Assembly: GCA_964354335.1 (NCBI GenBank)
Contig: CAYGZJ010000001.1
Coordinates: 1-38,580, forward strand
Direction of reading: 5' to 3'
Origin: an uncultured Planctomycetales bacterium
Lineage (GTDB): Bacteria > Omnitrophota > Gorgyraeia > Gygaellales > Profunditerraquicolaceae
Length of the DNA: 38,580 bases
Both the position numbers and the translations under genes were made by a program. Numbering within the stretch: position 1 is the stretch's first letter; each line of letters begins with the position of its first letter. Below the pieces are notes generated by a model. That model had not been told where the DNA came from. It did no database searches and saw nothing but the letters and a program-made list of their open reading frames with translations. This document shows positions 5,404 through 32,017 of this stretch, piece by piece.

Positions 5404-7200
5404 CTAAAATATAGTAGTAATTATTATCAACCCTGCTAAAGTGGCAAAAATATACAAGATATAAAGGTGTATACTCCCCGGCTGCAGCTTTTTCATCTTA
5501 AATGCGGCAGAATAGATCAATCCCAGCAAAGGCTGGTAAAAGTATCGCTTAAATACCGGAGTTGTGTGTGTTTCGTAAGTAAACTTACGTACATGATAAA
5601 AAGAATCTCTTATTTTTTCACTTTTCCTGTAAGGCAATAGAAAAAAGCTAAAGGCTATTCTGAAAGGCTTTGAAAAAGCAGTTGCCGTATATTCATTTCG
5701 GCTGTCCAGTGCATAATATCCACAATCCCAGGTATTATAACGGACTTGTTTAGTGCGTAAACCGAACTTAAACCAAAGAAAGACCGCGATGCCAAGGATA
5801 GCTAAGATTATAGCGATGATCGCAGGTAAAACTGATACAACATTAAAAGACACATCTGCTTTTTCGATACCCAGCGTTGAACGCGAAATGCTTAACAAAA
5901 CCGGCATAATTAATCCGGCCCCGAGACCGAATAAAATCACAAAGGTGGCTAGAATTGCCATGCCGACCTTCATGGAAAAACCGGCTTCCCTTGATTCCTG
6001 AGCACGAACACTCCTCGGTAACGCAAGAAAAGTTATGCCGAAAGCCTTAACAAAACAAGCTGCCGCTAGTCCGCTAGTTAAAGCTAGCGCCGAAGCTGAC
6101 AAAATCATAAAAATTTTAATCCATCCCTGAGAATGTATTACCCCTAAGAAAAATGACTGAAATGTCAGCCATTCGCTGACAAATCCGTTTAACGGCGGAA
6201 GCGCGGAGATACCCATTGCGCCGATCAGAAAAAACGACGCAGTAGCAGGCATTGTTTTTATAAGGCCGCCCATCTTTTCCATATCGCGTAATCCTGTTGC
6301 CTTAAAAACGCTCCCTGAGCAAAGAAACAAAAGCCCCTTAAACAAAGCGTGATTGATCAAATGATACAACCCCGCGCACATAGCTAACACCGCAACTGCC
6401 GCAATGCCTTGACTTCCAAAAAACATTGCTGTCCCTAAGCCTAAAAGGATTATTCCTATATTTTCAACGCTGTGATAGGCAAGTAATTTCTTAAGATCGT
6501 GGTCCATCAACGCATAGATGACTCCGACTAGGCAAGAGATAATCCCAAGCACAAGAATAAACGCGCCCCACCAGGCTAGCCCGGGGCCTAAAAGTGTTAT
6601 GAAGAAACGAATCATGCCGTAAATCGCTACCTTAATCATTACGCCTGACATGATGCTTGAAATATGCGCCGGGGCCTGCGGATGCGCGTAGGGCAACCAA
6701 ATATGTAACGGAACGACTCCTGCCTTGGTCGCAAAACCGATAAACAAAAGTAAAAAAATAACGTTTCGTTCCTGGAGAGGTAGTGAGGTTACAGCGAGTT
6801 TTACTGCAGAATAATCGAAAGAACCTGCGCAGTTATATAGGATAAAAAATGCCGCCATAAGACAGGCGGTGCCGATATGAGTCATTACCAGATAAATCGC
6901 TCCTGCGCGGACAGACTTTTCGTGCTTATAATCAAAAACTACAAGGAAGTAAGAAGCAAGCGACATCAATTCCCAAGACACAAGGAATGAAATAATGTTA
7001 CCGGACAATACTACTGAACACATAGAGAGAGTAAAAATAACTAGAAGCACCCAGGAAACAATCTTCTTTTTAAGCGTTTCTTTATACAAATACCCTATTG
7101 AGAATATTGCCGAAGGAATACAAACAAATCCGATCACAGCAAGAAATAATATTGCCAGCGGATCAATAAAAAATAGCTGTTTTGGCAGTAGATTTATCAT
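5404..7200 (-). CDS. HyfB/HycC/NuoL-like antiporter-type membrane subunit
   Basis: 598 aa. It has the NuoL-family core (ATKAGVVPLHIWLPYAHP, LLAYHSVENIG) and a HycC/HyfB-type C-terminal region containing WDCGY. Confidence 0.85.
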   Translation of the reverse strand: MINLLPKQLFFIDPLAILFLAVIGFVCIPSAIFSIGYLYKETLKKKIVSWVLLVIFTLSMCSVVLSGNIISFLVSWELMSLASYFLVVFDYKHEKSVRAGAIYLVMTHIGTACLMAAFFILYNCAGSFDYSAVKLAVTSLPLQERNVIFLLLFIGFATKAGVVPLHIWLPYAHPQAPAHISSIMSGVMIKVAIYGMIRFFITLLGPGLAWWGAFILVLGIISCLVGVIYALMDHDLKKLLAYHSVENIGIILLGLGTAMFFGSQGIAAVAVLAMCAGLYHLINHALFKGLLFLCSGSVFKATGLRDMEKMGGLIKTMPATASFFLIGAMGISALPPLNGFVSEWLTFQSFFLGVIHSQGWIKIFMILSASALALTSGLAAACFVKAFGITFLALPRSVRAQESREAGFSMKVGMAILATFVILFGLGAGLIMPVLLSISRSTLGIEKADVSFNVVSVLPAIIAIILAILGIAVFLWFKFGLRTKQVRYNTWDCGYYALDSRNEYTATAFSKPFRIAFSFFLLPYRKSEKIRDSFYHVRKFTYETHTTPVFKRYFYQPLLGLIYSAAFKMKKLQPGSIHLYILYIFATLAGLIIITTIF

Positions 7201-7210
7201 TAGATATTAA

Positions 7211-7265
7211 CCCTATAAAAATAAAAAAACCTTCGCCAGCCGTAAACATAAACTAGCAAAGGTTT
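7211..7265 (-). terminator. Terminator-like hairpin plus U-tract in the leader, 10-25 nt upstream of the first Ehr gene's ATG
   Basis: On the minus-strand RNA, AAACCUUUGC (7265-7256) pairs with GCGAAGGUUU (7236-7227). That gives 10 bp including one G-U, with a 19-nt loop. UUUUAUUUUUAU follows, then AGGGUUAAUAUCUA-AUG. Confidence 0.45.
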
Positions 7266-7320
7266 CTCGTTAAAACTTTAGTCCAGACCCACCTTAAAAC
7301 TCGGAACTAATATTGTTAAT

Positions 7321-7348
7321 ATATTATCATATATGCGATCAAAATCAA
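7321..7348 (-). promoter_or_regulatory. Candidate sigma-70 promoter for the Ehr-type operon
   Basis: The minus strand reads TTGATT (7348-7343), 16 nt, TAATAT (7326-7321). This lies about 120 nt upstream of the ATG at 7200. Confidence 0.3.
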
Positions 7349-7471: not shown

Positions 7472-7750
7472 TTAATCGTGGGATTCGCTTAACTGCATAA
7501 GAAGTGTTTTATCGCCAGATACAAGGGCCGCCTTCTTCTTTTTAGCCCAGCGCTTGATCTGTGCTTCACGTGCTTGCGCACTAGATCTGTTTTGAAACGG
7601 CTCTTTATAAACAACCTCAACCGGCCTGCGATTACTGGTATAATCGCCGCCCTTACCGGCATTGTGCTCGGTTAGTCTGCGGGAAAGGTCGGATGTCGAT
7701 CCAGTGTAAAAACTATTATCTTTACAACGCAGAATATAAACATACCACAT
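7472..7750 (-). CDS. Small GIY-YIG nuclease-superfamily protein (UPF0213/YhbQ-like)
   Basis: YVYILRC..SFYTGSTSDLSRRLTEHN is the GIY-YIG core. I place the start at the ATG at 7750 (MWYVYIL), which has AAGGAG 5 nt upstream. The ORF track extends to 7768. Confidence 0.8.
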   Translation of the reverse strand: MWYVYILRCKDNSFYTGSTSDLSRRLTEHNAGKGGDYTSNRRPVEVVYKEPFQNRSSAQAREAQIKRWAKKKKAALVSGDKTLLMQLSESHD

Positions 7751-7802
7751 ATTGCTCCTTCGACGCACTCGCCTAAACTAAACAACAACTCGCTTGCTCA
7801 GG

Positions 7803-7896
7803 ATGGTTCGCCGCGCCATTATGACAACGCCCTCACCCATTCAGCGCTCACGACAATGGTGAGCAAGCCCGAACGAAGTGAGGGCGCGTCGAACCA
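7803..7896 (-). other. GC-rich nested stem-loop between the tRNA-Gln 3' end and the GIY-YIG gene
   Basis: Three stacked helices are visible: 7803-7815/7885-7897 (13 bp, one mismatch), 7830-7836/7878-7884 (7 bp) and 7846-7851/7859-7864 (6 bp, 7-nt loop). No U-tract follows. Confidence 0.5.
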
Positions 7897-15963: not shown

Positions 15964-16058
15964 TGAGATTATATTTTTTATTAATTTAGTATTCTACCAC
16001 AAAAAACTGTTATTTTATACAGTTTAGAAGAATTTTTGCGCGGGGCTTATTATTTTTA

Positions 16059-16418
16059 TTATCGGGCAGGTGATGCGTGCGGGGAACCGAGAATGCTTTC
16101 TAGTTGGGAAACGCTGTTTTCCATGATGTTGCTTGCGCCGGATTCTAAACCGGTAGATTCCTCGGAAATAATTCCTGATGTTTGGCTTGGGGAGCTAAAA
16201 CTATCCGATGTGTCTGAGAAAGATTCTTCGGGCGCGCTGAAATCAGATGATGGCGCGCTAAAATCCTCGGAAGGGCTGCTGAAATCTTCTGATGGGCTGC
16301 TGAAATCTTCCGATGGGCTGCTGAAATCCCCGGAAGAATCGCTAAATGATGAATCTTGCGCCCAGGCAACGGTTAAAAACAAAAACGAAGCAAATATCAA
16401 CATGACAATTTTTCTCAT
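16059..16418 (-). CDS. Secreted acidic Ser-rich repeat protein
   Basis: 119 aa with signal peptide MRKIVMLIFASFLFLTVAWA. The mature part is dominated by (S-P-S-E-D-F-S)-type heptads. Confidence 0.55.
   Translation of the reverse strand: MRKIVMLIFASFLFLTVAWAQDSSFSDSSGDFSSPSEDFSSPSEDFSSPSEDFSAPSSDFSAPEESFSDTSDSFSSPSQTSGIISEESTGLESGASNIMENSVSQLESILGSPHASPAR
16231..16335 (-). repeat. Five tandem 21-bp (7-codon) repeats inside the Ser-rich gene
   Basis: Units start at 16231, 16252, 16273, 16294 and 16315. The units at 16273 and 16294 differ by one base; the unit at 16315 shares their first 14 bases (gggctgctgaaatc) and then diverges. Confidence 0.85.
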
Positions 16419-16422
16419 ATGA

Positions 16423-19815: not shown

Positions 19816-19832
19816 AAGTATTTATGAATCAT

Positions 19833-19944
19833 AAATTCAAAGTCTAAAATTAAAAATATAAAACAAGCTTAAAGTCTAAAATTCAAATTTTAAAATTTAT
19901 ACTTTAACTTTGTTTTGATTTTTTTACTTTGAATTTTAAATTTA
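19833..19944. repeat. Family-A AT-rich palindromic intergenic element, copy A1
   Basis: The left arm carries aaattcaaagtctaaaat (19833-19850), identical to 24360-24377 and 31246-31263. The right arm carries ttttttactttgaatttt (19920-19937), identical to 31339-31356. The arms are imperfectly complementary. Confidence 0.85.
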
Positions 19945-19960
19945 ACGTACTTTATCCTCA

Positions 19961-20689
19961 TTACTTAATTCTACCCAAGGGGAATTCTTTAGTCATGCAA
20001 TCCTTTATCCAATCAAGAGACTCTTCGGGAGACAGCCCCCAGTATGTCGGACACGGTGATAATATTTCCACCATTGAAAACCCGACACGGTTAATCTGAT
20101 TTTGGAATGCCTCTTTTATCGCGCGCTTGGTCTTCAATATCTCCGGAACCGAATGCAGCGAGGTGCGGTTAATGTATTTTACTCCGGGTAAAAGCGCGAG
20201 CATCTTGGAAATATGCAGCGGATGGCCCTGTTCATGATGATCCCTGCCAAGCGGGGTAGTCGCGGTCTTCTGGCCCAGCAGCGTAGTAGGCGCCATCTGT
20301 CCGCCGGTCATGCCATAAACAGCGTTGTTGATAAAAACTACGGTCAGATTTTCTCCGCGGTTTGCCGCGTGGATAGTTTCATTGGTGCCGATAGCTGCTA
20401 AATCACCGTCTCCCTGATAAGTAAAAACGATGTTTTCCGGACGCACGCGTTTTATCGCGGTTGCCACTGCCAGGGCCCGGCCGTGCGCTGCCTCTGAACA
20501 GTCAAAATCCCAATAATCATAGGCGATGACTGCGCAACCGACCGGAGCTACGGCGATCACAATTTCCCGTATATCTAATTCATCCACTACTTCCGCTATA
20601 AGGCGATGTACAATACCGTGCCCGCATCCGGGGCAGTAATGCGTAGAGATGTCGCGCAATGATATTGTTCTGGAAAATACTTTTTCCAT
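19961..20689 (-). CDS. 2-oxoacid:ferredoxin oxidoreductase, beta (TPP-binding) subunit
   Basis: 242 aa with CPGCGHG near the N-terminus and the GDGD...NN TPP motif ([11 protein letters not shown]...[15 protein letters not shown]). Confidence 0.9.
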
Positions 20690-20691
20690 AA

Positions 20692-20808
20692 TGTTATTTT
20701 CGTTGGGTTCGTTATTTTCGTTAGGTTCGTTAGGTTCGTTAGGTTCGTTAATGTCGTTTAAAAGTTTTAAACGAAACTGACGATAATAACGGTATTAACG
20801 AACTAAAC
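20692..20808. repeat. Family-B 'TCGTT' palindromic element, copy B1
   Basis: It has six tandem 9-mers ttcgttNNN (20699-20752), a centre cgtttaaaagttttaaacg, and then four inverted (a/g)acg(a/g)NNNN 9-mers. The last 14 nt overlap the alpha-subunit C-terminus and stop. Confidence 0.85.
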
Positions 20809-21850
20809 TATTTAATTTTTTAATAACCTCTTCTTCCGAAGGTATTCCACCTCCGGCCCTTCCAAGAAAAGCCACCGGAGCTTTTCCGTTAAGCGAAAGG
20901 CGTACGTCATCAAGCATCTGCCCGTAAGACATCTCAACAACCAAAAACTTAGCTGTTGGCTTGCGCTTGGCCAGCGCCTTTTCAGGAAACGGCCAGAGCG
21001 TTATCGGCCTTATGAGCCCGACTTTCTTGCCTTTTTCCCGCAGCCGCATCATGGCGCTTTTACAGATGCGCGCCATTGAGCCATAGGCGACCAAAATAAT
21101 CTTTGCGTCATCCACAAACAGGCTTTCCCAGTCCTGTTCTTTCTGTTTTATCTTTGCGTAAGTCTCTTGCAAAATAAGATTGAAGTCCTCAAGCTCAGTA
21201 TCACGCATAAAAAAAGACTTTACGATATTTGGTTTTCTTCCTTTACAGCCGGTCAGGGCCCATGGTTTTTTGACATTTTGAATTTTTAATTTTGAATTTT
21301 TAACCTGCAGAGGTTCCATCATCTGTCCAAGCATCCCGTCCCCTAAAATAATAACCGGATTGCGGTATTTGTCCGCCAGTTTAAAAGCCCTGAACATTAA
21401 ATCATAGGATTCCTGGACTGTTGATGGGGCAAGGACAATGCAATGATAATCGCCGTGTCCGCCTCCGCGCGTAGCCTGAAAATAATCCGATTGCGAAGGC
21501 AGGATATTGCCCAGGCCCGGGCCTCCCCGCATCACATTCACTATTACAACCGGAAGTTGAGCTCCGGCGATATATGATATCCCCTCCTGCTTCAGGCTCA
21601 TACCGGGGCTGGAAGATGAAGTCATGGAGCGCGCGCCCGCGGCAGCGGCACCAAAGACCATATTTATGGCAGCTAGCTCTGATTCTGCCTGAATAAAAAT
21701 ACAGTTTTTTAACGGCATATGCTTTGCCATATAGCCGGTAAGCTCGTTTTGCGGAGTAATGGGGTAGCCGGCATAAAAAGTGCATCCTGCGTCAATGGCG
21801 CCCTGCGCGACCGCCTCATTTCCACTCATTAAGATCCTAGTCTTATTCAT
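20795..21850 (-). CDS. 2-oxoacid:ferredoxin oxidoreductase, alpha subunit
   Basis: The sequence MNKTRILMSGNEAVAQGAIDAGC..YPITPQNE is typical of POR/KOR alpha. I prefer the ATG at 21850 over the TTG at 21865 used by the ORF track. Confidence 0.85.
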   Translation of the reverse strand: MNKTRILMSGNEAVAQGAIDAGCTFYAGYPITPQNELTGYMAKHMPLKNCIFIQAESELAAINMVFGAAAAGARSMTSSSSPGMSLKQEGISYIAGAQLPVVIVNVMRGGPGLGNILPSQSDYFQATRGGGHGDYHCIVLAPSTVQESYDLMFRAFKLADKYRNPVIILGDGMLGQMMEPLQVKNSKLKIQNVKKPWALTGCKGRKPNIVKSFFMRDTELEDFNLILQETYAKIKQKEQDWESLFVDDAKIILVAYGSMARICKSAMMRLREKGKKVGLIRPITLWPFPEKALAKRKPTAKFLVVEMSYGQMLDDVRLSLNGKAPVAFLGRAGGGIPSEEEVIKKLNSLVR

Positions 21851-21956
21851 AATTTTTAAACTCAAAGTCTAAAGCTCAAAAATCAAAGCAATTTTAAAAT
21901 TTAAATTTTAAAATTTGAACTTGTTTTGAATTTTGAGTTTTGAATTTTAAACTTAA
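21851..21956. repeat. Family-A palindromic element, copy A2
   Basis: ctcaaagtctaaagctcaaaaatcaaagc ... gttttgaattttgagttttgaatttt around a tttaaaatttaaattttaaaattt centre. Confidence 0.75.
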
Positions 21957-21976
21957 CTGGTAATTTACCATACTCT

Positions 21977-22180
21977 TTACTTATAAACTTCTATGCAGCA
22001 ATCCGGGCAGATAACCGCGCACAGCGCGCAACCCAGGCATTCCCCGCTATCCTTAAATTTCACCGGCTTAACCCCGCGAAGATTCAATTTGCTATCCGCG
22101 CTGATCAACTCCTTAGGACAGACGCTGATGCACAAAAGGCACCCTTTACATTTATCGCGATTAATGGTTATCTTTCCCAT
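21977..22180 (-). CDS. 4Fe-4S ferredoxin-type delta subunit of the oxidoreductase
   Basis: 67 aa with two CxxCxxCxxxCP motifs (CKGCLLCISVCP, CLGCALCAVICP). Confidence 0.85.
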   Translation of the reverse strand: MGKITINRDKCKGCLLCISVCPKELISADSKLNLRGVKPVKFKDSGECLGCALCAVICPDCCIEVYK

Positions 22181-22204
22181 AAATATTCGTTATAAGTTTA
22201 TATT

Positions 22205-24073
22205 TTAAACCAAGGCCCGGAATTGCATAACAGCTTTAATTTTATCCGCTATCCCCTGCCCGGTTAAACCATAATTGGTAAGCAAAAGCTCGCGTTTTCC
22301 GTGCGCGATGAACTCACAAGGCAGTCCGATCTTGACTACGGGACGCGATATCGCATCTTCTACCGCGCTGCCAAAACCTCCGGAAACAATCCCTTCTTCC
22401 GCGGTAAAGACGTATTTCGCTTTTTCCGATACTGCCTTAAACATATCCCCGTCCAAAGGCTTTGCAAAGCGGGCGTTGATAAGTTTGCCCGAAAAACCCT
22501 CTTTCTCAAGAAGCAACAATGCTTCCAGGCAAGTCATGACCATACTGCCTAAGGCAATAATCGCAAAATCTTTTCCCTCCCTGAGCAATTCCGCCCTCCC
22601 AAGGTCTATGGGATAAGTAGGGGCTCGCGGCACCGGACAGCTGGCACGGGGATAACGCAACGCCACCGGCCTATCTAACTGGACAGAAAACTCAAGCATC
22701 GCCTCAAGCTCAAGAGAATCTTTTGGAGCCATGACCACCATATTAGGAATACTGCTCATATAACTGATATCAAACAGCCCCTGATGCGTAACCCCGTCTT
22801 CTCCGACGATACCGGCGCGGTCGATAGCAAAAATCACTGACGCATCCTGCAGGGCGACGTCCTCAATAAGCTGATCGTATGAACGCTGCAGGAAAGTCGA
22901 ATATACCGCGACAACCGGCTTAAGGCCTGTCTTGGCAAGCCCGGCGGCAAAACATACGGCATGCCCTTCTGCGATACCCACGTCGAAAAACCTATCCGGA
23001 TACAGGTCGCGGAATTTATCCAGGCCGGTTCCCTCCGGCATAGCAGCAGTTATGGCAACGATTTTTTTGTCCCCCGCGGCCAGCGCGATCAATTTTTCGC
23101 TAAAAACCTCAGTATAAGATTTGGGGGAAGCGGCTTTATCTTTGGCTAAGCTTTCTCCGGTTTCCACATCAAAAGGGCCTGTGCCGTGAAAACGCACCGG
23201 ATCATTCTCTGCCGGCGCATAACCTTTGCCTTTCTGCGTGATCACATGCAAGATCTTCGGGCCCTTGATGGGAAGGATATTTTTAAGCGTATTCACCAGT
23301 AAATTCACATTGTGTCCGTCAAAAGGCCCGAAGTAGCGAAATCCTAATTCCTCAAAGAGCATCCCCGGGATAAAGAACCCTTTCAGGCTTTCTTCAAACT
23401 TATTCGCCAAAGAAAGGATCCTGCTTCCCTTAGGCATACGGGACTTGACGAAATCTTCCAGGGAATCCTTGAAACGGTTATACGCGGGCAAAGAAATGAT
23501 CTTGTTCAGATACGTGCTGATCGCGCCTACGTTAGGAGAGATGCTTAGTTCATTTGTATTTAAAACCACCAGGATGTCTTTTTTCAGGTGGCCGGCATTA
23601 TTAAGGCCTTCGAAGCAGAGCCCGCCGCTTAAAGATCCGTCTCCCACAACCGCGACCACTTTAAAGGGTGCTTCCTTGATGAGGTCGCGTCCTGCGGCAA
23701 GCCCCAGAGCTACTGAAACAGCGTTTGAAGAATGTCCCGCAGTAAAAATATCGTATTCTGATTCATTCTTTGAAGGAAACCCGCTGATCCCGCGGTATTG
23801 GCGCAGGGTAGCAAACTCTTTGTTTCTGCCCGTAAGTATTTTATGCGCGTAAGACTGGTGCCCTACGTCGAATACGATCTTATCCAGCGGGGTGTTCAGG
23901 CAGTAGTGCAGCGCGATAATAAGCTCAGTTGCTCCCAGGCTGGAAGCAAGATGGCCGCCGGTATTGGCCACTACCTCGACAAGGCGGCCGCGCACTTCCT
24001 GCGCCAGGGCAGGCAGTTTTTCAAGCGGGAGATTACGCAGATCTGCCGGAGATTGTATGGTATCTAGCAACAT
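22205..24073 (-). CDS. dxs: 1-deoxy-D-xylulose-5-phosphate synthase
   Basis: 622 aa with GGHLASSLGATEL, DVGHQSYAHKILTGR and the GDGS TPP motif. Confidence 0.95.
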   Translation of the reverse strand: MLLDTIQSPADLRNLPLEKLPALAQEVRGRLVEVVANTGGHLASSLGATELIIALHYCLNTPLDKIVFDVGHQSYAHKILTGRNKEFATLRQYRGISGFPSKNESEYDIFTAGHSSNAVSVALGLAAGRDLIKEAPFKVVAVVGDGSLSGGLCFEGLNNAGHLKKDILVVLNTNELSISPNVGAISTYLNKIISLPAYNRFKDSLEDFVKSRMPKGSRILSLANKFEESLKGFFIPGMLFEELGFRYFGPFDGHNVNLLVNTLKNILPIKGPKILHVITQKGKGYAPAENDPVRFHGTGPFDVETGESLAKDKAASPKSYTEVFSEKLIALAAGDKKIVAITAAMPEGTGLDKFRDLYPDRFFDVGIAEGHAVCFAAGLAKTGLKPVVAVYSTFLQRSYDQLIEDVALQDASVIFAIDRAGIVGEDGVTHQGLFDISYMSSIPNMVVMAPKDSLELEAMLEFSVQLDRPVALRYPRASCPVPRAPTYPIDLGRAELLREGKDFAIIALGSMVMTCLEALLLLEKEGFSGKLINARFAKPLDGDMFKAVSEKAKYVFTAEEGIVSGGFGSAVEDAISRPVVKIGLPCEFIAHGKRELLLTNYGLTGQGIADKIKAVMQFRALV

Positions 24074-24108
24074 CGGCTTTCTCTTTTACTTTCTAAGCTC
24101 TAAAAGTT

Positions 24109-24342
24109 TCAAGACTCACTAGGGGGATCAAATGGTTTGAGCTCAAATTCTCCCTTTTTATTCTTTACCAGAAGGTCTATTTTCTTTTTCGCATTATCCA
24201 GGCGCTGATTGCACAGGCGCGAGAGCTCTATTCCTTCCTGATACTTCTTCAGCGCCTCATCCAAAGAAAGGTCTCCCCCCTCCAAATCCTCAACGATCTT
24301 TTCCAGCTTCTTTAATGCCTCTTCGAATTTCATCTCAGCCAT
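24109..24342 (-). CDS. xseB: Exodeoxyribonuclease VII small subunit
   Basis: 77 aa. FEEALKKLEKIVEDLEGGDLSLDEALKKYQEGIEL is the canonical XseB pattern. A GGAGGA SD is present. Confidence 0.9.
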   Translation of the reverse strand: MAEMKFEEALKKLEKIVEDLEGGDLSLDEALKKYQEGIELSRLCNQRLDNAKKKIDLLVKNKKGEFELKPFDPPSES

Positions 24343-24358
24343 GTAGTATCCTCCGTGT

Positions 24359-24533
24359 TAAATTCAAAGTCTAAAATTCAAATTTTAAAACAAATTAAAA
24401 GTCTAAAGGTCAAAACATTTTAAATTTTAAGCTTTAACCTTGCTTTTCCCGCTACCCATCTAGTTCTAGGCGGGATCCCGCTCTCGATTTATATTGCTCG
24501 GCGGGAGAATTTTTTACTTTAGACTTTAAAATT
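24359..24533. repeat. Family-A palindromic element, copy A3, carrying a nested GC-rich insert
   Basis: The left arm includes the shared 18-mer (24360-24377). The right arm is ttttttactttagactttaaaatt. Between them, 24447-24506 holds two abutting TCCCGC-N17/19-GCGGGA hairpins. Confidence 0.8.
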
Positions 24534-24542
24534 ATCGCATAA

Positions 24543-25886
24543 CTAATCTTTCTTCTGAACAATCTGTGTTACAGTACTTACTACTTCTCCCTTATGCAAC
24601 CTGGTCTTAATACTTTCTCCCGCCTTCAGGCTGCCTGCGTCCTTAATGATCGCCTCATCCGGCATGCGAAAGGTAATGCTATATCCGCGGCCCAGGATAT
24701 TCAGCGGACTTAAGGAAGAAAGCTTTTCCGCCACCCCGCTAAACTCCGCATAGCGTAATTGCAAAAAGTGCTCCGCGCGCACGGCGATTTGTTTAGTCAT
24801 GGTAAGTAGTTTTTCCTTGTACTGCTGGATCAAAACAATCGGATTCAAAAGCGCCAGCTTCTTCTGCGCAGCCTCAAGCTCCCCGCTAGTCAACTTATAA
24901 ATATTTTCGGTATTAAGTTTCAGGCGGTGGATGAAATTCGTTATGGTGTCCTGTTCGGTTGCAATCAGATCCGAGAGCGAACGCGAAAGGTCATTAAGAA
25001 TACCGCTTAGCCGCGTTTTAAGTTCTTCTTTTTTAGGAACCACCAGTTCCGCGGCCACTGACGGGGTTGCCGCGCGCACATCCGCTACTAAATCCGCGAT
25101 GGTCCAGTCCCGCTCGTGTCCGACGGCAGAAACAATCGGGATCCTGGAATCATAAATCGCCCGGGCCACGACCTCCTCATTAAAAGCCCACAAATCCTCA
25201 ATGCTTCCCCCGCCTCTTCCTACAATTAAAACCTCGATACGCTCATCGGCTCGGACACTATCATTTAAAGCGTTAAATTCCCTGATCGCCTGGGCAATCT
25301 CTGTTTTAGCCGCTTCCCCTTGCACCTGCACGTGGTTTATCACGATATTTATGTCGCTAAACCGGCGGTCCAGGACTTTTAAGATATCGCGGATCGCCGC
25401 GCCCTGCGCAGAGGTCACTATTCCGATTCGCGATGGCAAATACGGGATCGGCCGCTTATGCTCCGGAGCAAAAAGGCCTTCCTTCTCCAGCTTTTTCTTC
25501 AGCTGCTCCAGGGCCAGCTGCAGGCTGCCGATGCCTTTGGGCTCAATTTTCTCGACGATAATCTGATAGTTTCCCCGCGGTCCGTAGGCGCTGATCTTGC
25601 CAAGACAAATAACCTTAAGGCCGTTCTCGACTTTGAATTTTAGCTCTTTATTGGCGCGGCTGAACATCGCGGCCGGCAGTACCGAGGTATCATCTTTTAA
25701 GGTAAAATAAAAATGCCCGGCGGCGGAAGGCTGAAAATTGGAGATCTCACCCTCGACCCAGATCTCAGGATAGGTGTTTTCTAATATTATCTTTATATCC
25801 TGGGCGATCTCGGAGACGGTGAAAATATGCTTTCCCTTGTCCGCCTTAAATGCCTCTTCAAAAAGATCCATTTCTTTTTCAGGCAT
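24543..25886 (-). CDS. xseA: Exodeoxyribonuclease VII large subunit
   Basis: 447 aa with an OB-fold N-terminus (WVEGEISNF..SGHFYFTLKD) and a catalytic core (RGGGSIEDLWAFN). Confidence 0.9.
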   Translation of the reverse strand: MPEKEMDLFEEAFKADKGKHIFTVSEIAQDIKIILENTYPEIWVEGEISNFQPSAAGHFYFTLKDDTSVLPAAMFSRANKELKFKVENGLKVICLGKISAYGPRGNYQIIVEKIEPKGIGSLQLALEQLKKKLEKEGLFAPEHKRPIPYLPSRIGIVTSAQGAAIRDILKVLDRRFSDINIVINHVQVQGEAAKTEIAQAIREFNALNDSVRADERIEVLIVGRGGGSIEDLWAFNEEVVARAIYDSRIPIVSAVGHERDWTIADLVADVRAATPSVAAELVVPKKEELKTRLSGILNDLSRSLSDLIATEQDTITNFIHRLKLNTENIYKLTSGELEAAQKKLALLNPIVLIQQYKEKLLTMTKQIAVRAEHFLQLRYAEFSGVAEKLSSLSPLNILGRGYSITFRMPDEAIIKDAGSLKAGESIKTRLHKGEVVSTVTQIVQKKD

Positions 25887-25890
25887 AACT

Positions 25891-27699
25891 TTATTCTTTT
25901 TTGGTTACCACATTACCCTTGTTATTTTCAACCGGTTCGCCCCCGGCCGCAGCCACCGTAGGATCCTGCGAAACTTTCTTTAAAACGATAAACTGTATGG
26001 AGTAAGGGGTAAGGTTTACTGCCTCCTGGTATCCTTCGGCGATGGTGATGGTTTTTTTCTCCGCGGCAGGAAACCCATTACTAAAGTCCGCTGCGGCATC
26101 AATGGTAAAACGCTCGTACTGATAATCTCCCTGCAGATTTTTAATATTCAGCTTGATCGAGCGGCCGGAAGCGGTAAGCTTTTTCGCCTGGTCGTTTAAC
26201 TCCACAGTCCTCTTAAGAAGACTTGAGAATTTATTGTTGAACCCCAACATCTGCACATCTAGCTCATGATTGAGTATTTTATCCATGCGGCGCGAGCGGA
26301 TAAGATTAAGCAGCATCTTTCTGCTGGTACTGGATACCGTACAAATATTGCGGGAAAGGTAATTATTTGCGATATCCGGGTCGATATAATTATACAGGAT
26401 AAGCGCCAGGCCATCCGCGGTCTTGGTGGCGATAACTCCGGCGAATTCATCATTGATTTTGAGCGGATAAAGCTTTGGGCCCAGAGAATTCAACATCTGG
26501 CAGGCGTAATAAGAAAGCTTCGGCTTTCCTTTGTAAGCAGCCGAGTCGGCGTCAAAAGAGAAAAGGCCGACATTGCGCACCACCCCTTCTTTGTTTCCGT
26601 CAAAATCTTCCAGGCAGTAATAAATCTGGTAGTTCAGCCCTGCCTCATACATATTCCTTATGCGGCTGGGGATGTAACTGGCGCTGACATAAGATTTTTC
26701 CTGACGCTCCGCTAAAACATTGCCATTACGGTCGAAATTCCATTCGTCAACAATAAGCGGGATGTCGGGATTAAGGTGAAAATATGAAAGCCAGGTGCGG
26801 ATCAACTGTATAACGTTTTGGTTATATAAAGTAAGGGCCTTTTCCGGGGCCGGATCAGTGGAATAGCCGTGCCAGCTGACAAAATCCAGCGGTAGGCGCT
26901 GATAATAACAGTAGCGGATAAGTTCATATATCAGGGCGTTTTCCGGATACACTATGGTGTTTCCGTCGATACTCTGGAACCACCAGCTGATGCTTGGCCC
27001 GCCGATAGGAATATGGATTTTATATTCTGCTTCCAGCTCCCTGACGCATTCAGCGATAGTGCGGTAGAGGCGGAAATATTCCGGGCGTCTGCCCAGGAAG
27101 AAATCTTCCGAATCCGGAGAGGTCCAGACCTCATACCAGATATTCAGCCGCTTAATACAGCTTAAATCGCGGATAGTGTTCTTTATCAGGTTCTTGAACC
27201 CGCGGTAGTCATGCGGCGGGCTCTTAATATCCAGCACCTTTCCCAGGCCGGCGGGCATGCCAAAAAGATCCAGAATCACCGTACCGTCGGCATCGTTTAT
27301 TTTTTTGATGATACTTTCGTAGTTAGCCTTTAGTTTTTCCTGGAGCGGTTTATTCTTATAAAGCTGGTTGATCTCCCAGAGGTTATATTGCATCCGAAAG
27401 AAGCCGGAAAAACCGACTTCCTTCTGCCAGAGATCGAGCACTTTTTTCTCGGCAACCCCCTGCGGCCAGGTTATTTCCCGGTTAAATCCGCGGCCGCTTA
27501 AATCAACGCTGGGCTTAAAAATTTTCGGCAGGTCTACGGTAGTGGCAGAAGCATCTAGGGTTAACTCTATTGCGCTGACATCCTGCGCACAGGCAAGCCC
27601 ACAAAGTCCAAAATTCAAAGTAAAAAATCCAAAATAAATATAAAGTATATACTTTAAATTTTTAACTTTTAATTTGTTTTGAACTTTGAATTTTATCAT
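25891..27699 (-). CDS. Secreted glycoside-hydrolase-like TIM-barrel protein (clan GH-A, GH39/PslG-like by motif)
   Basis: 602 aa. It has a signal peptide, YEVWTSPD at the place of the (E)VWNEP acid/base motif, GGPS, and IVDEWN as a nucleophile-type motif. The family call rests on motifs only. Confidence 0.4.
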   Translation of the reverse strand: MIKFKVQNKLKVKNLKYILYIYFGFFTLNFGLCGLACAQDVSAIELTLDASATTVDLPKIFKPSVDLSGRGFNREITWPQGVAEKKVLDLWQKEVGFSGFFRMQYNLWEINQLYKNKPLQEKLKANYESIIKKINDADGTVILDLFGMPAGLGKVLDIKSPPHDYRGFKNLIKNTIRDLSCIKRLNIWYEVWTSPDSEDFFLGRRPEYFRLYRTIAECVRELEAEYKIHIPIGGPSISWWFQSIDGNTIVYPENALIYELIRYCYYQRLPLDFVSWHGYSTDPAPEKALTLYNQNVIQLIRTWLSYFHLNPDIPLIVDEWNFDRNGNVLAERQEKSYVSASYIPSRIRNMYEAGLNYQIYYCLEDFDGNKEGVVRNVGLFSFDADSAAYKGKPKLSYYACQMLNSLGPKLYPLKINDEFAGVIATKTADGLALILYNYIDPDIANNYLSRNICTVSSTSRKMLLNLIRSRRMDKILNHELDVQMLGFNNKFSSLLKRTVELNDQAKKLTASGRSIKLNIKNLQGDYQYERFTIDAAADFSNGFPAAEKKTITIAEGYQEAVNLTPYSIQFIVLKKVSQDPTVAAAGGEPVENNKGNVVTKKE

Positions 27700-27710
27700 T
27701 TGAATTTAAC
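27601..27710. repeat. Family-A palindromic element, copy A4, translated as the N-terminus of the GH-like protein
   Basis: caaagtccaaaattcaaagtaaaaaatcc ... centre taaagtatatacttta ... gttttgaactttgaatttt. The ATG at 27699 lies in the right arm. Confidence 0.8.
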
Positions 27711-28490
27711 TTACAGCTTTTTCTGTATTCTTATTATAGATCTGGCTTTGCCTGTTTCTTCATCAATATCCACAACTGCTCCGGCAAGCTGCACGTTTTC
27801 CTGCGCCACTTCAAAACGCACCGGAATAGCAGTTAAGAACCTCTCCAGCACATCCTCAACGCGCCTGCCAATAACCGAATCATACGGCCCGGTCATCCCG
27901 ACATCAGTCAGATACGCCAGGCCCTGCGGCAGAATACGCTCGTCAGCGGTCTGGATATGGGTATGCGTACCTAAAACAGCGGAGGCCTTGCCGTCAAGAT
28001 ACCAGCCCAGAGCAACTTTTTCCGAAGTCGCCTCGGCGTGTATGTCCACTATGATCACCTTAGTCTGTTCTGCCAGGGATTCGACTGCCTGCATACTTGT
28101 GCGAAATGGGCACTCCAGTGCTTCCATAAAAACCCGGCCGTTGACATTGACTACTCCGACTTTTTTGCCGGCCTTTGTCTTATAAACCGCCCATCCCCGG
28201 CCAGGAGCCCCGGCGGGAAAATTTGCCGGACGCAAAATGCGCTCATCAGAGTTGATTATTTCAAAGACGTCTTTTTTCTTCCAGATGTGGTCTCCGGAAG
28301 TAAGGACATCGACGCCGCAGCTAAATAATTCCTCTGCCACCCGCGGCGTGATCCCTGATCCGCCTGCGGCATTCTCGGCGTTGACGATGACAAAATCCAA
28401 CCCAAATTCGTTCACTAATCCCGGAAGGAGCTTTACCACCGCTTCCCTGCCGGGACTGCCCACAACATCGCCGATGAATAGTATCTTCAT
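27711..28490 (-). CDS. ymdB: YmdB-family metallophosphoesterase (TIGR00282-like)
   Basis: 259 aa with MKILFIGDVVGSPGR, VNAENAAGGSGIT and a GTHTH motif. It lies directly downstream of rny, as in Bacillus. Confidence 0.85.
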   Translation of the reverse strand: MKILFIGDVVGSPGREAVVKLLPGLVNEFGLDFVIVNAENAAGGSGITPRVAEELFSCGVDVLTSGDHIWKKKDVFEIINSDERILRPANFPAGAPGRGWAVYKTKAGKKVGVVNVNGRVFMEALECPFRTSMQAVESLAEQTKVIIVDIHAEATSEKVALGWYLDGKASAVLGTHTHIQTADERILPQGLAYLTDVGMTGPYDSVIGRRVEDVLERFLTAIPVRFEVAQENVQLAGAVVDIDEETGKARSIIRIQKKL

Positions 28491-28594
28491 TTTCGTTATT
28501 ATCGTTTTGCTCGTTAATATCGTTAATATCGTTAATATCGTTTTAAAAGTTTTAAAACGATCCTAACGAAATTAACGAAAATAACGGACTAAAC
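28491..28594. repeat. Family-B 'TCGTT' palindromic element, copy B2
   Basis: It has six tandem 9-mers tcgttNNNN (28493-28546), a centre cgttttaaaagttttaaaacg, and then four inverted aacg(a/g)NNNN 9-mers ending ...aacggactaaac, as in B1. Confidence 0.85.
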
Positions 28595-28596
28595 AA

Positions 28597-30150
28597 TTAC
28601 TTTGCATACTCTATCGCTCTTGTTTCTCGAATAACCGTGACCTTGATCTGCCCGGGATATTCCATACCCTCTTCGATCTTTTTACGGATTTCGCGCGCAA
28701 GATTCACCGCGTCAGGATCAGAAATCTTTTCCGGCTGCACAATAACGCGGATCTCGCGGCCGGCCTGAATGGCAAAGGATTTCTCTACGCCCTTAAAGAG
28801 ATTGGCGATGGACTCGAGTTTCTCCAGGCGCTTGATATAGGTTTCCAGCGTCTCGCGGCGCGCCCCGGGACGGGCAGCGCTGATGGCATCTGCCGCCACT
28901 GCCAAGACCGCGTAAAGACTTTGCACCGGAGCCTCTTCATGATGCGCCTCGATTGCCGAGACGACTTCCGGGGACTCATTGTATTTCTTCGCTAACTCCG
29001 CGCCCAATTTGGCGTGCGTTCCTTCCACCTGATGGTCCACGGCTTTGCCGATATCATGCAAGAGGCCGATGCGCCGGGCAAGTTTAAAATCAAGCCCGAG
29101 CTCTGATGCCATTACCCCCAAAAGAAAAGAAACTTCCTTGGAATGCTGCAGGGCGTTCTGGCCGAAACTGGTGCGGTAGCGAAGGCGGCCCAGCAGCTTG
29201 ATAATCTCCGGGTGCAGACCGTTTACCTGCGCCTCAAAAGCGGCGCGCTCACCTTCCTCGCGGATCTTTTCATCCATCTCTTTCTTAGTCTTCTCGACAA
29301 TTTCCTCGATTCTTCCCGGATGGATCCTTCCGTCGTGAAGCAGTTTCTCAAGGCTAAGGCGCGCGATCTCGCGGCGCACCGTATCAAAAGCCGAAAGCGT
29401 AACTGCCTCCGGGGTGTCGTCAATGATGACATCTACTCCCGTGGCCATTTCTAAGGCGCGGATATTACGGCCTTCCCTTCCGATGACCCTTCCCTTCATC
29501 TCATCATTAGGCAAGGTCACGACACTTACCGTTGATTCAACTGTATGTTCGGCGGCGCAGCGCTGAATGGCGAGGCTGACAACTTCCTGTGCCTTCTTAT
29601 CAACCACACTCTTTAGTTCCTCTTCCTGCCGTTTAATCAATACCGCCTTCTCATTATTCAGTTCCTCATTCAGGCGGCTGAGCAATATCTGTTTTGCCTC
29701 TTCCGCAGAAAGTGAAGAAATTTTCTGCAGGCGCTCTTTCTCTTCGGCGACAAGCGCTACAAGCTGGCCTTCTTTTGCCTTAAGCGCCTCTTCCTGCTTC
29801 CTGACATTATCCTGACGCGTCTCGATTTCCTTTTCTTTCTTCTCCAGGAGATCAAGGCGGCGATCAATATTTTCCTCTTTCTGTGAAAGACGCTTCTCAA
29901 GAACCGTGATTTCCTGGCGCCTATCTTTGGTCTCGCGTTCAAAATCCTGACGCATCCGGTAAAGCAGGTCCTTTGCTTCAAGCTCTACCTCGCGGCGCCT
30001 GTCCTGGGCTTCTTTCTTAGCCTGTTCCAGGATATGCTGCGCCTGAGTTTCCGCGGCTTTGATCTTTTTCTCGGCGATGTGCTTTCGCATAAAGTAGCCT
30101 GCGAAGGCAGCGATTACGCCGATGACAATAAAAATAATGATGTTTAGCAT
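28597..30150 (-). CDS. rny: Ribonuclease Y
   Basis: 517 aa with an N-terminal TM helix, a coiled coil, a KH domain ([15 protein letters not shown]) and an HD domain (LLHDIGKA). Confidence 0.95.
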
Positions 30151-30251
30151 GGTTTATCCGACCTCCTTCAAATGAGAATACGGCATGCCTGTCTTTTAAA
30201 ACAGATGCCTTAAACTCTTCTTTTTCTTTTTACCTTGTGGCTGCTGTATGG

Positions 30252-30815
30252 CTAGGCAAACAGGGCTTTGGTGACGCTTATATCGTGGGAGGCGGTGGGA
30301 ACGCGCGGTAAGATTTGGAAGTCAAATGCCAGCCCAAGACAAGGCGTGTCTTTGGGCAGCGTGCTTAAAAAACGGTCATAGTAACCTTTGCCGCGTCCGA
30401 GGCGGTTTCCTTTTTTGTCAAAGGCAAGTCCCGGCACGATCACAAGATCCAGATCCTCAATGCCTATCGGCCGCTCCACCGCTGGTTCGCGGACACCGTA
30501 AGGGCCGATTTTCAGGCCTCCATGACCATCTAAAATACATGGCTTCATCAATAGGCTGCCCTTCCTGCAAACAGGGACAGCCACTATCTTACCTAATTGT
30601 TTTGCCGCGTTTATCATTTCTTTTGTATTTACCTCGCCGCTTAGCGCGATATAAAACATCACTGTTTTTGCCTGCTTGAAAATCTTAGTCCGTAAAAGCT
30701 TCTCCTTTATTGATGCACTTTTTCGGTTTCGATCTTCCTCCTTCTGTCTTGTTAACCTTATAAGGATTTTACTACGTATTTGCTTTTTTGTCAATCCAAC
30801 TAGTCTAGTGTTCAT
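30252..30815 (-). CDS. 5-formyltetrahydrofolate cyclo-ligase
   Basis: 187 aa with LVIVPGLAFDKKGNRLGRGKGYYDRFL, the family signature. Confidence 0.85.
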   Translation of the reverse strand: MNTRLVGLTKKQIRSKILIRLTRQKEEDRNRKSASIKEKLLRTKIFKQAKTVMFYIALSGEVNTKEMINAAKQLGKIVAVPVCRKGSLLMKPCILDGHGGLKIGPYGVREPAVERPIGIEDLDLVIVPGLAFDKKGNRLGRGKGYYDRFLSTLPKDTPCLGLAFDFQILPRVPTASHDISVTKALFA

Positions 30816-31236
30816 TATGTCCGTGTTTATGCTCTTTGATCACAAAGGGCACAGGTAATCCCTGTTTCTGGTAATAATCCTTCAGTGCCGAACGCAGCGC
30901 TTCTTCCGCAAGCACGGAGCAGTGCATCTTCACCGCAGGAAGGCCTCCCAGGGCCTCGGCAACCGCAGAATTGGAGATCTGCAGGGCCTCATCAATAGTC
31001 TTACCCTTGACCATCTCGGTGACCATGGAGCTGGTTGCGATCGCCGCACCGCAGCCGAAGGTCTTAAACTTAACGTCAACGATAATGTTGTTTTCGATCT
31101 TTAAAAACATCTTCATCACGTCCCCGCAGATAGGATTTCCGACGGTGCCTATCCCGCTGGCATCAGCGATCTCGCCGACATTGCGGGGATTGGTGAAGTG
31201 ATCCATTACTTTTTCTGAGTATGGTAAATTGGCCAT
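30805..31236 (-). CDS. NifU/IscU-type Fe-S cluster scaffold with a His-rich tail
   Basis: 143 aa with the three scaffold Cys (GNPICGD, FGCGAAIA, HCSVLAE). The C-terminus is KEHKHGHNEH. Confidence 0.85.
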   Translation of the reverse strand: MANLPYSEKVMDHFTNPRNVGEIADASGIGTVGNPICGDVMKMFLKIENNIIVDVKFKTFGCGAAIATSSMVTEMVKGKTIDEALQISNSAVAEALGGLPAVKMHCSVLAEEALRSALKDYYQKQGLPVPFVIKEHKHGHNEH

Positions 31237-31238
31237 GT

Positions 31239-31363
31239 AAATTTAAAATTCAAAGTCTAAAATCCAAAATTCAAAACAAATCAAAAGCTAAAAGGTCAAA
31301 ACAAACATTTAAATCTTGAGCTTTGAACTTGTTTTAAATTTTTTACTTTGAATTTTGGACTTT
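31239..31363. repeat. Family-A palindromic element, copy A5
   Basis: It carries the shared 18-mers at 31246-31263 and 31339-31356. The right arm (31343-31363) encodes the last six codons and TAA of the upstream gene. Confidence 0.85.
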
Positions 31364-32017
31364 ATCGCTCGGCATTATCAGCCTATGCGGTTTGGTCGCT
31401 TTCTTAAAATCGCGCGGGCCCCGTATGGCTTTGAAATCTTTGGACTTACCCTGCTTTTCCAGCTCCTTATAAATAAGCACCCAGGCGCAGTCTTTGTCTT
31501 TATCGACCTCACACTTGCCTTTATCCGCGCCGCCGCAGGGACCGTTCAAAAGCCCTTTGGCGCACAGGGTCACCGGACAGATCCCCCCGGTCTCATCCAG
31601 AACGCAATCCCCGCAAAGGGAACATTTCTCATAAAAATTACCTGCGGAATCCATGACCGCGCCAAAAATGGTATTCAGGGCCGGCAACACCGCATGACTT
31701 AATCTGTCATTGTCTTTGACCGACTGCACCCCCAAACCGCAGGCCAAGACCAGGATGGCCTGCGCATCACGCAAGACCGGCATATTCTTAGCCAACTCTG
31801 TCTTAACTTTGGCTGCCACGCAGGGAGCGGAAGGAATACATGTACCGACAATAACCTTACCCTTAGCCTCTAATTCCTGCTTGATCTGGGCCAATTCCGG
31901 CTCCCCTCCGGTCTTACAGGTAGTGGCGCACTCCCCGCAGCCGACCAGGAATATTTTGGTAAAGCCTTTGAGGCTATCTATAATCTCTTCAATGGTTTTT
32001 CGCTCTGATATAATCAC
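31343..32017 (-). CDS. MetV-like protein (methylene-tetrahydrofolate reductase C-terminal-domain family, Cys-rich)
   Basis: 224 aa with CSLCGDCVLDETGGICPVTLCAKGLLNGPCGG..GKCEV, matching the MTHFR_C-type signature as I recall it. It has a GTG start with AAGGGG upstream. Confidence 0.6.
   Translation of the reverse strand: MIISERKTIEEIIDSLKGFTKIFLVGCGECATTCKTGGEPELAQIKQELEAKGKVIVGTCIPSAPCVAAKVKTELAKNMPVLRDAQAILVLACGLGVQSVKDNDRLSHAVLPALNTIFGAVMDSAGNFYEKCSLCGDCVLDETGGICPVTLCAKGLLNGPCGGADKGKCEVDKDKDCAWVLIYKELEKQGKSKDFKAIRGPRDFKKATKPHRLIMPSDKVQNSK

Follow-up and report, generated by a model that had tools for sequence, protein, structure and literature searches.

Bacterial MITEs (miniature inverted-repeat transposable elements), such as Correia/NEMIS, RUP and ERIC, are small, non-coding, high-copy and lineage-specific sequences with terminal inverted repeats, which lie between genes and are co-transcribed as hairpins. 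The REP/BIME and REPIN-RAYT systems are proteobacterial, and their repetitive extragenic palindromes (REPs) are GC-rich, 20-40 nt long, carry a conserved 5' tetranucleotide and flank the gene of the REP-associated tyrosine transposase (RAYT). Here, we analyze a stretch of 38,580 nt (contig C1, positions 1-38580; hereafter, the window) from the genome of an uncultured Omnitrophota bacterium, and specifically the AT-rich palindromes in its intergenic gaps, which we term family A. This family is a lineage-specific, high-copy repeat, and probably a gene-less, non-autonomous and MITE-like derivative of foldback elements that bear a PF05635/TIGR02436 gene.

Family A resembles bacterial MITEs in being small and multi-copy, in its inverted ends, and in having a longer relative with a gene between the same ends. 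It differs from them in that no target-site duplication was detected, in that the longer relative carries an Avd-like gene and not a DDE transposase, and in that its arms are built from degenerate tandem units of ~7 nt. With REP/BIME and REPIN-RAYT it has in common the intergenic palindromes within operons, the mosaic composition, the lack of a target-site duplication and the proposed mRNA hairpins; unlike REPIN-RAYT, it is AT-rich with a ~48-bp hairpin, and the RAYT-like gene of the genome is unlinked to it. Long inverted arms composed of short repeats in tandem, at times with a coding part between them, also recall the foldback (FB) elements of Drosophila, but these are eukaryotic, kilobase-scale and unrelated in sequence, and the analogy is architectural only.

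Two further systems are close in other respects. Intervening sequences of 23S rRNA with a PF05635 open reading frame (ORF) have been described in Leptospira and other bacteria (PMC10053308). As in the elements discussed here, a PF05635 gene lies within a long inverted-repeat hairpin in a transcribed region, and gene-less forms exist; however, the rRNA sequences are excised by RNase III, whereas family A lies between protein-coding genes in a genome in which RNase III was not found. The GGGAATC heptamers of Xanthomonas and the GGGGAYT heptamers of Nostoc, with 70-75 convergent inverted pairs per Xanthomonas genome, stand in tandem in nearly perfect arrays. They were studied for their formation of G-quadruplexes, and the authors found no connection with mobile elements (Rehm et al. 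2015, PMC4692102). Like these heptamers and the short tandemly repeated repetitive (STRR) sequences of cyanobacteria, family A consists of 7-nt tandem units that are mostly intergenic, often form convergent stem-loop pairs and vary between species. Family A differs from the heptamers in its defined ends and in its consensus of ~110 nt, which is degenerate and ordered. The link to PF05635 that we observe on plasmids of Nostocales is absent from PMC4692102.

The genome that contains the window (labeled G000) comprises 1.44 Mb in 227 contigs, with 46.7% GC and an estimated completeness of 86%. An earlier note on this DNA had described five AT-rich imperfect palindromes (19833-19944, 21851-21956, 24359-24533, 27601-27710 and 31239-31363), all of which were recovered in the present analysis. 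The two 18-mers that it reported as repeated among them are also present: AAATTCAAAGTCTAAAAT at 19833, 24360 and 31246, and TTTTTTACTTTGAATTTT at 19920 and 31339, with the reverse complement of the latter at 27610. Searching the genome with an nhmmer profile built from the five copies yielded 146 matches at E<1e-3 (best 1e-25), corresponding to 74 loci, and no match in the base-reversed genome. Similarly, the signature 13-mer TTCAAAGTCTAAA occurs 38 times in the genome and not once when it is read backwards. The similarity among copies therefore reflects homology and not AT-rich composition. With at least 74 copies, the density of the family is about one copy per 20 kb. Two Logan contigs assembled independently (L029 and L032) match the window identically and also contain the elements, which are therefore not assembly artefacts. 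In public collections scanned with the family A 18-mer, only single chance matches were found, in unrelated AT-rich genomes and viral contigs.

Within the window, the minus strand carries every gene between 19.2 and 32.0 kb. The run consists of g31343, nifU, the 5-formyl-tetrahydrofolate cyclo-ligase gene, rny, ymdB, a GH39-like gene, xseA, xseB, dxs, porD, porA, porB and porG. Its family A copies, none of which is assigned to a strand, are the following:

19826..19948 (19833-19936 as delimited by the inverted repeat), no strand: A1, family A, in the gap between the porB stop and the porG start (nhmmer E=8e-23)
21854..21960, no strand: A2, family A, between porD and porA and directly next to the porA ATG at 21850 (nhmmer E=1.3e-19); its sequence is also in the independent Logan contig L029
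24353..24537, no strand: A3, long mosaic copy of family A, in the xseA/xseB gap
24447..24508, no strand: GC-rich double-hairpin module nested in A3, TCCCGC...GGCGGGATCCCGC...GGCGGGAGA
27598..27712, no strand: A4, family A, overlapping the 5' end of the GH39-like ORF 25891-27699, whose ATG is at 27699 (nhmmer E=2.5e-20)
31241..31367, no strand: A5, family A, in the g31343/nifU gap (nhmmer E=1.2e-25)

Across the genome, family A loci are non-coding and ~70-195 nt long, with a plain size class of ~100-115 nt and a class of ~140-195 nt that holds the nested module. Their termini are well defined and inverted, (G)TTAAATTCAAAG / CTTTGAATTTAA(C), and are found with at most one mismatch in 60 copies. 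The consensus of 44 short copies is ~113 nt long (TAAATTCAAAGTCTAAAATTCAAAATTCAAAACAAAT...ATTTGTTTTGAATTTTGAACTTTAAACTTTGAATTTAA). RNAalifold gave no consensus structure for these 44 copies, and the consensus sequence was folded instead, resulting in a 48-bp hairpin of -41.6 kcal/mol. The predicted RNA hairpins of single copies have z-scores of -1.8 to -4.1 relative to dinucleotide shuffles. Each arm is an ordered series of degenerate 7-nt units (TTCAAAG, TCTAAAA, TTCAAAA and so on), whose number differs among copies; the repeat finder detected the 7-nt period only as offset self-matches. The earlier note had further claimed that all copies share one orientation, but for near-palindromes such a statement means little, and across the genome the copies lie in either direction relative to transcription.

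About one-third of the copies hold, at one fixed site, a nested GC-rich double hairpin of ~60 nt, whose core GGYGGGATCCCGY marks 24 copies genome-wide. In every case an outer arm (...AAAATTC) stands on one side of the module and an inner arm (AAAACAA...) on the other, with constant polarity. Eighteen of the 24 modules lie no more than 120 nt from a family A locus defined by the profile, and the printed flanks of the remaining six, judged by eye, show family A-type arms in all but one. The 175-bp copy A3 owes its length to such a module of 62 nt (24447-24508): a left arm, loop and inner right arm (24353-24446) precede it, and an outer right arm (24509-24537) follows. Its predicted RNA fold is a four-way junction (-51.7 kcal/mol, z=-3.9). 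Relative to transcription, the module is on the 5' side in 11 mosaic copies and on the 3' side in 5, according to our own count. A CCCGCC/GGCGGG double hairpin similar to this module precedes a small GIY-YIG gene on contig C186, and in the window a 98-aa GIY-YIG gene (7472-7768, minus strand) adjoins a tRNA gene and is preceded by a GC-rich inverted repeat (7770-7895).

One family A copy carries a cargo gene. On contig C27 (6585-7340), a family A left arm is followed by an ORF, an inner right arm, the nested module and an outer right arm. Compared to the consensus, the left arm covers positions 0-56 and the right arm positions 51-111, with a score of 34 each, and the ORF matches PF05635 (53.6 bits) and TIGR02436 (67.6 bits, cut-off 24). 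The closest relative of this ORF, in genome G025, has an ATG start within its own left arm. The last 187 nt of the C27 element, comprising right arm and nested module, are duplicated in tandem (7025-7340). Another PF05635 gene of the same genome, on contig C185, is intact (110.9 bits) and is situated between arms of TTCGTGAG units.

The association between PF05635 genes and inverted arms of short units extends well beyond this genome. We compared G000 with up to 40 further genomes (41 in total), and a PF05635 gene was found in 22 of the 41. In 22 of the 27 PF05635 loci examined in relatives, the flanks are complementary inverted short-unit arrays that score above all 30 shuffles; one of these loci has family D units (see below) and one has A-like units. 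Six plasmid-borne homologues from cultured Nostoc, Calothrix, Anabaena sp. 90 and Riemerella were also examined. Five of them are likewise bracketed by inverted short-unit arrays that score above all shuffles, with the units GGGAGTA, GGGTGTA, CCTGTCA, GGGAAAA and AACCTTG, and two of the plasmid genes lie inside operons, one between nrdB and nrdA and one between cas6 and cas4. Genes annotated as "four helix bundle protein" between inverted heptamer arrays were noted on Nostoc edaphicum pNe_5 (L286), Anabaena sp. 90 pANA02 (L284), L282, L281 and L285. Relatives in the Protein Data Bank are 2GSC (Xanthomonas XCC0516) and 2RLD, with five chains each, and PF05635 is homologous to Avd, the accessory protein of diversity-generating retroelements (DGRs) (PMC10053308). 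In the literature, we found no paper that links PF05635 genes to heptamer arrays and none on intergenic palindromes of Omnitrophota.

To place the family in its lineage, we examined the same junctions in a syntenic set of 15 genomes from the same family or order. These retain, in full or for the most part, the order of 14 genes that begins with g31343 and ends with the gene downstream of porG. In the comparison for presence or absence that the earlier note had suggested, family A is absent from the same junctions in most of the 15. For example, porB and porG overlap at their stop and start codons (ATGA) in 11 of the 13 relatives with both genes, compared to a gap of 145 nt in the window. Similarly, 11 of 15 relatives have porA and porB spaced by -2 to 12 nt (105 nt in the window, where a family B element, B1, is present), and the porD/porA spacing is 1-22 nt in 12 of 15 (129 nt in the window). 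Neither of the two same-genus genomes contains the signature 13-mer. Among the rest of the 40 relatives, no genome has it more than four times, and the sites inspected there are isolated matches, not elements. Family A is therefore an expansion specific to the species lineage. The relatives have gap-filling palindromes of their own, 90-220 nt long and at other junctions, with units that include TCCAAAT, GTATCAAA, AGTTCAT, TAGCGTN, AGGTATN, GGGATNN and more.

A sister strain is represented by contigs of two ENA assemblies (L028, L030 and L031), 96-97% identical to the window in genes, and the comparison with it is limited to three junctions. All three hold a different repeat family. At rny/ymdB, an element with TAGTAAC/TCGTAAC units replaces the family B element of the window, and the whole gap is exchanged: homology ends exactly with the rny stop and begins again with the ymdB ATG. 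At g31343/nifU, an arm of TTTGTAA/TTTGGAA units (family C) is found in place of A5. At xseA/xseB, where the window has the mosaic A3, the sister strain has a whole family C element and, after it, ~35-45 nt from the right end of family A. Since the sister strain differs at all three junctions, occupied junctions turn over quickly, through insertion into resident elements or exchange between them. In the sister contigs, families C (CACAAAT/TTTGTAA units) and D (TAGTAAC units) were noted at L028 2700-2840, L030 2040-2240 and L031 1-150. A metagenome scan with porB recovered no close strain (best match, 82% amino-acid identity), and exact-protein look-ups with porG, porB, ymdB and the sister rny and xseA recovered no further sister contigs.

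The placement of the copies could be taken as a sign of function. When both flanking genes were called, 50 of 57 family A copies lie between co-directional genes. The element begins a median of 6 nt past the upstream stop codon, and the next start codon follows ~15 nt after it; in 11 of the 50, the TAA stop is composed of a flanking T and the first two A's of the element. Gene calls were crude, and with starts taken from the longest-ORF call, a Shine-Dalgarno (SD)-like motif precedes 9 of the 50 downstream genes, as against 36% genome-wide and 12% of random 17-mers. This bias to co-directional junctions, the rarity of downstream SD-like motifs, the better-than-shuffled folding of most copies, and the fact that the rny/ymdB junction is filled by some element in 8 of the 15 relatives would all fit host-selected RNA elements in place of selfish DNA. 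Such elements would be kept for operon expression, as stabilisers between cistrons, as sites of processing or as devices of translational coupling, a role proposed for some REP/BIME elements. We nevertheless consider such an origin unlikely, and family A is apparently parasitic and was once mobile. Most relatives have no element at the same junctions, where their genes overlap; different families swap at one site within 3-4% divergence; arm mutations are uncompensated; the mosaic copies are mixed in orientation relative to transcription (11 versus 5); and one copy carries a cargo gene. Neither promoter-like sites (20 versus 16.7±3.6 expected) nor terminator-like sites (17 versus 16.3±4.2 expected) are enriched in the elements. 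At A1, a ribosome-binding site split in two and bridged by the hairpin was considered and rejected because the spacing is too long: the SD-like TGAGGA upstream of A1 is separated by ~18 nt from the base of the hairpin, and another ~17 nt separate that base from the ATG.

The relation between the two arms bears on how the copies arose. Standard pairs occupy 82.8% of the pair cells, compared to 82.9±0.4% when partners are shuffled among copies, and 312 cells are broken versus 39 compensated. As the arms do not covary, the copies appear to decay from a palindromic master, with pairing not kept by selection. Furthermore, an arm fits its own partner no better than it fits the arms of other copies (24.8 versus 24.9, p=0.61), from which we conclude that family A was not built arm against arm in place. 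This result counts against an origin in situ, by which replication slippage would multiply the ~7-nt units and palindromes would result from their mirroring by template switching, as STRR-like growth without transposition. Arm-to-arm templating predicts that arms are more alike within a copy than between copies, the opposite of what was found. Such growth would account for the 7-nt periodicity with its variable unit number, for the lack of a target-site duplication and of a transposase, and for the many unrelated unit sequences in relatives, but not for 74 loci with a common, ordered consensus of ~110 nt, defined ends and identical 18-mers, nor for a module nested at one fixed position with fixed polarity. 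Overall, we regard it as improbable.

The earlier note had called the behavior of the palindromes MITE/REP-like, and this description holds in part. A dispersed, non-coding family with terminal inverted repeats, lineage-specific, absent from orthologous junctions, replaced in a sister strain and with one cargo copy fits it well; the molecular traces that the note had proposed to look for, a target-site duplication and a cognate IS200/IS605 TnpA or RAYT, do not accompany the copies. Several observations weigh against the reading of family A as a mobile, gene-less derivative of PF05635-bearing elements. The direct-repeat score of a copy's own flanks equals that of permuted flanks (4.74 versus 4.74, p=0.50, n=60), in a test in which a palindromic TTAA or TA duplication is indistinguishable from the inverted repeat of family A. 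No transposase adjoins any family A copy, IS200/IS605 TnpA and TnpB included, and TnpB was not found in the genome. A reverse transcriptase (RVT_1) was not found in the 86%-complete genome either, and retro-mobility by an Avd/reverse transcriptase pair was rejected on this ground. We know of no catalytic activity of PF05635 proteins, the protein encoded by the cargo ORF is not a known transposase, and Avd, the homologue in DGRs, acts together with a reverse transcriptase. The C27 cargo ORF has no canonical start codon, and family A may therefore have no live master here. The copies are only 71% identical to one another (79% to the nearest neighbor, 84% at most), which shows no sign of very recent copying. 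Differences between junctions at a strain divergence of 3-4% fit replacement or recombination as well as classical transposition, and the three sister-strain junctions provided no pair of empty and filled sites at high identity. Mobility is deduced from the distribution of the copies, not observed.

The only Y1_Tnp gene of the genome (C26:4224-4556; L113 1225-1866, minus strand) encodes a RAYT-like protein of 213 aa, with 53.8 bits for PF01797 and 66.5 bits for NF047646 (cut-off 80); no family A sequence and no heptamer array is present in its flanks, and the gene after it has no NCBIfam match. That this transposase moves family A as single-stranded hairpins, in the manner of REPIN-RAYT, would also explain the missing target-site duplication, as Y1 transposition uses hairpins and leaves none, but it is very unlikely given a score under the NCBIfam cut-off, flanks devoid of family A where RAYTs sit between their own REPs, an AT-rich element of ~110 nt compared to GC-rich REPs of 20-40 nt, and an association, here and in relatives, with PF05635 and not with Y1 genes.

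We thus return to family A as a gene-less derivative of PF05635-bearing foldback elements, which we hold to be probable. In these small elements, two inverted arrays of ~7-nt units bracket a PF05635 gene, encoding an Avd-like four-helix-bundle protein ("23S rRNA IVS protein"). Copies would have spread from a palindromic master, landed or survived almost only at gene boundaries, and then decayed, with their pairing under no selection. They would be co-transcribed with the flanking genes and are predicted to loop out as AU-rich hairpins, which would leave the stop and start codons ~20 nt apart and could preserve re-initiation at formerly overlapping gene pairs. Because a looped-out hairpin would keep stop and start close, insertion may be tolerated at junctions that formerly overlapped or were coupled. 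Considering that target-site duplications are missing, that the elements are built as hairpins and that families replace one another at junctions, we suggest a mechanism that depends on hairpins or on recombination, and not DDE transposition.

Family A is not the only repeat of this design in the genome. Among the 438 gaps of at least 50 nt, a palindrome that exceeds the 99th percentile of shuffles is present in 116, and 52 of these 116 are family A; a terminator-like family, GGGGTCAGAATT, is also among the gap palindromes. Two elements of the window belong to family B:

20691..20808, no strand: B1, family B, in the porA/porB gap, with 9-nt TCGTTAnnT units and a TTTAAAAGTTTTAAA centre (z=-4.1)
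28475..28597, no strand: B2, family B, in the rny/ymdB gap (z=-6.7)

Family B, a sister family of family A, has at least 22 loci genome-wide, in which 9-nt TCGTTAnnT units surround a TTTTAAAAGTTTTAAAA centre, and it fills gaps as family A does. Further family B loci were noted at C4:8776, C170:2696, C147:1962 and elsewhere. In the genome of the window, family C has at least seven loci and family D has two. Families A and C have in common the ends GTTAAAT...ATTTAAC and a CAAACAAAT core. A separate dispersed hairpin family, AATGGGGTCAGAATT...AATTCTGACCCCATT, was seen at many loci (C2:9804, C20:6813, C45:3429, C129:3702, C26:5323 and others), often between convergent genes or at gene 3' ends, and has a terminator-like look.

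RNase III (PF14622, PF00636 and TIGR02191) was not found in G000, in 20 relatives from the same order (completeness of at least 90% in 11 of them) or in most families of the class. In a sample of 81 genomes from the whole phylum, 51 have the enzyme, and it looks to have been lost in a clade-specific manner. Excision of family A in the manner of the rRNA intervening sequences is unlikely here, since RNase III was not found in the clade. The loss of RNase III as an explanation of the elements received no support, as the PF05635 cargo gene is equally common in genomes of the phylum with and without the enzyme.

More tentatively, families A, B, C and D may all be gene-less offspring of one widespread, undescribed class of mobile elements, in which inverted arrays of ~7-nt units surround an Avd-like gene and which spreads in a hairpin-dependent way, without a target-site duplication or a classical transposase. 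Such a class would also explain the STRR sequences of cyanobacteria, the heptamers of Nostoc, perhaps the heptamer pairs of Xanthomonas, and the ORF-bearing intervening sequences of 23S rRNA, and the loss of RNase III may have let hairpins accumulate in operons. We consider this broader proposal possible, though less likely than not.

Two copies of the window contribute to coding sequences. A4 provides the ATG and signal-peptide codons of the GH39-like ORF, with its A-rich arm read as a Lys/Asn-rich n-region and its T-rich arm as the hydrophobic core. At the equivalent site, genomes G012 and G017 have different palindromes of their own, which are likewise read as start codon and signal peptide. 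The arm of A5 at 31343-31367 encodes the last residues (..KVQNSK) and the TAA stop of g31343 (ORF 31343-32017), and alignments of g31343 to most relatives stop at residue 215 of 224. Rickettsia palindromic elements insert in frame within coding sequences; here, A4 and A5 supply the 5' end of one ORF and the last residues and stop codon of another. Within porA, a family A-like stretch (21266-21310) was considered as an in-frame insertion and rejected, as the loop is equal in length in 13 of 15 relatives and its residues are partly the same. The variable loop of PorA (residues ~183-195 in the window) is longer in G012 (L018; 9 aa, YRISHIAYR) and G024 (L026; ~12 aa), and these extra residues may be in-frame repeat insertions.

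Elsewhere in the window, Rfam at gathering thresholds matched 6S RNA and one tRNA, and gave no match at the elements. At 16236-16340, four tandem 21-nt units (GCTGAAATCTTCTGATGGGCT) lie within the overlapping ORFs 16036-16422 (plus strand) and 16059-16418 (minus strand); each unit would code for seven residues.

New in this analysis are the replacement of families between strains, the module nested in family A, the statistical tests for duplication and covariation, the cargo gene in one family A copy and the check in cultured bacteria. If the proposed origin is correct, about one-quarter of the longer intergenic gaps of this genome would be filled by hairpin elements of one design. These elements would have pushed apart genes that overlap in relatives, and would donate stop codons, C-terminal tails and one signal peptide. 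This raises the question of how operons are expressed with 50-bp hairpins in a clade in which RNase III was not found. The cyanobacterial heptamer repeats, and perhaps those of Xanthomonas, would gain a testable origin, and the large PF05635 family, otherwise known only through the DGR accessory protein Avd, would gain its first genomic role.

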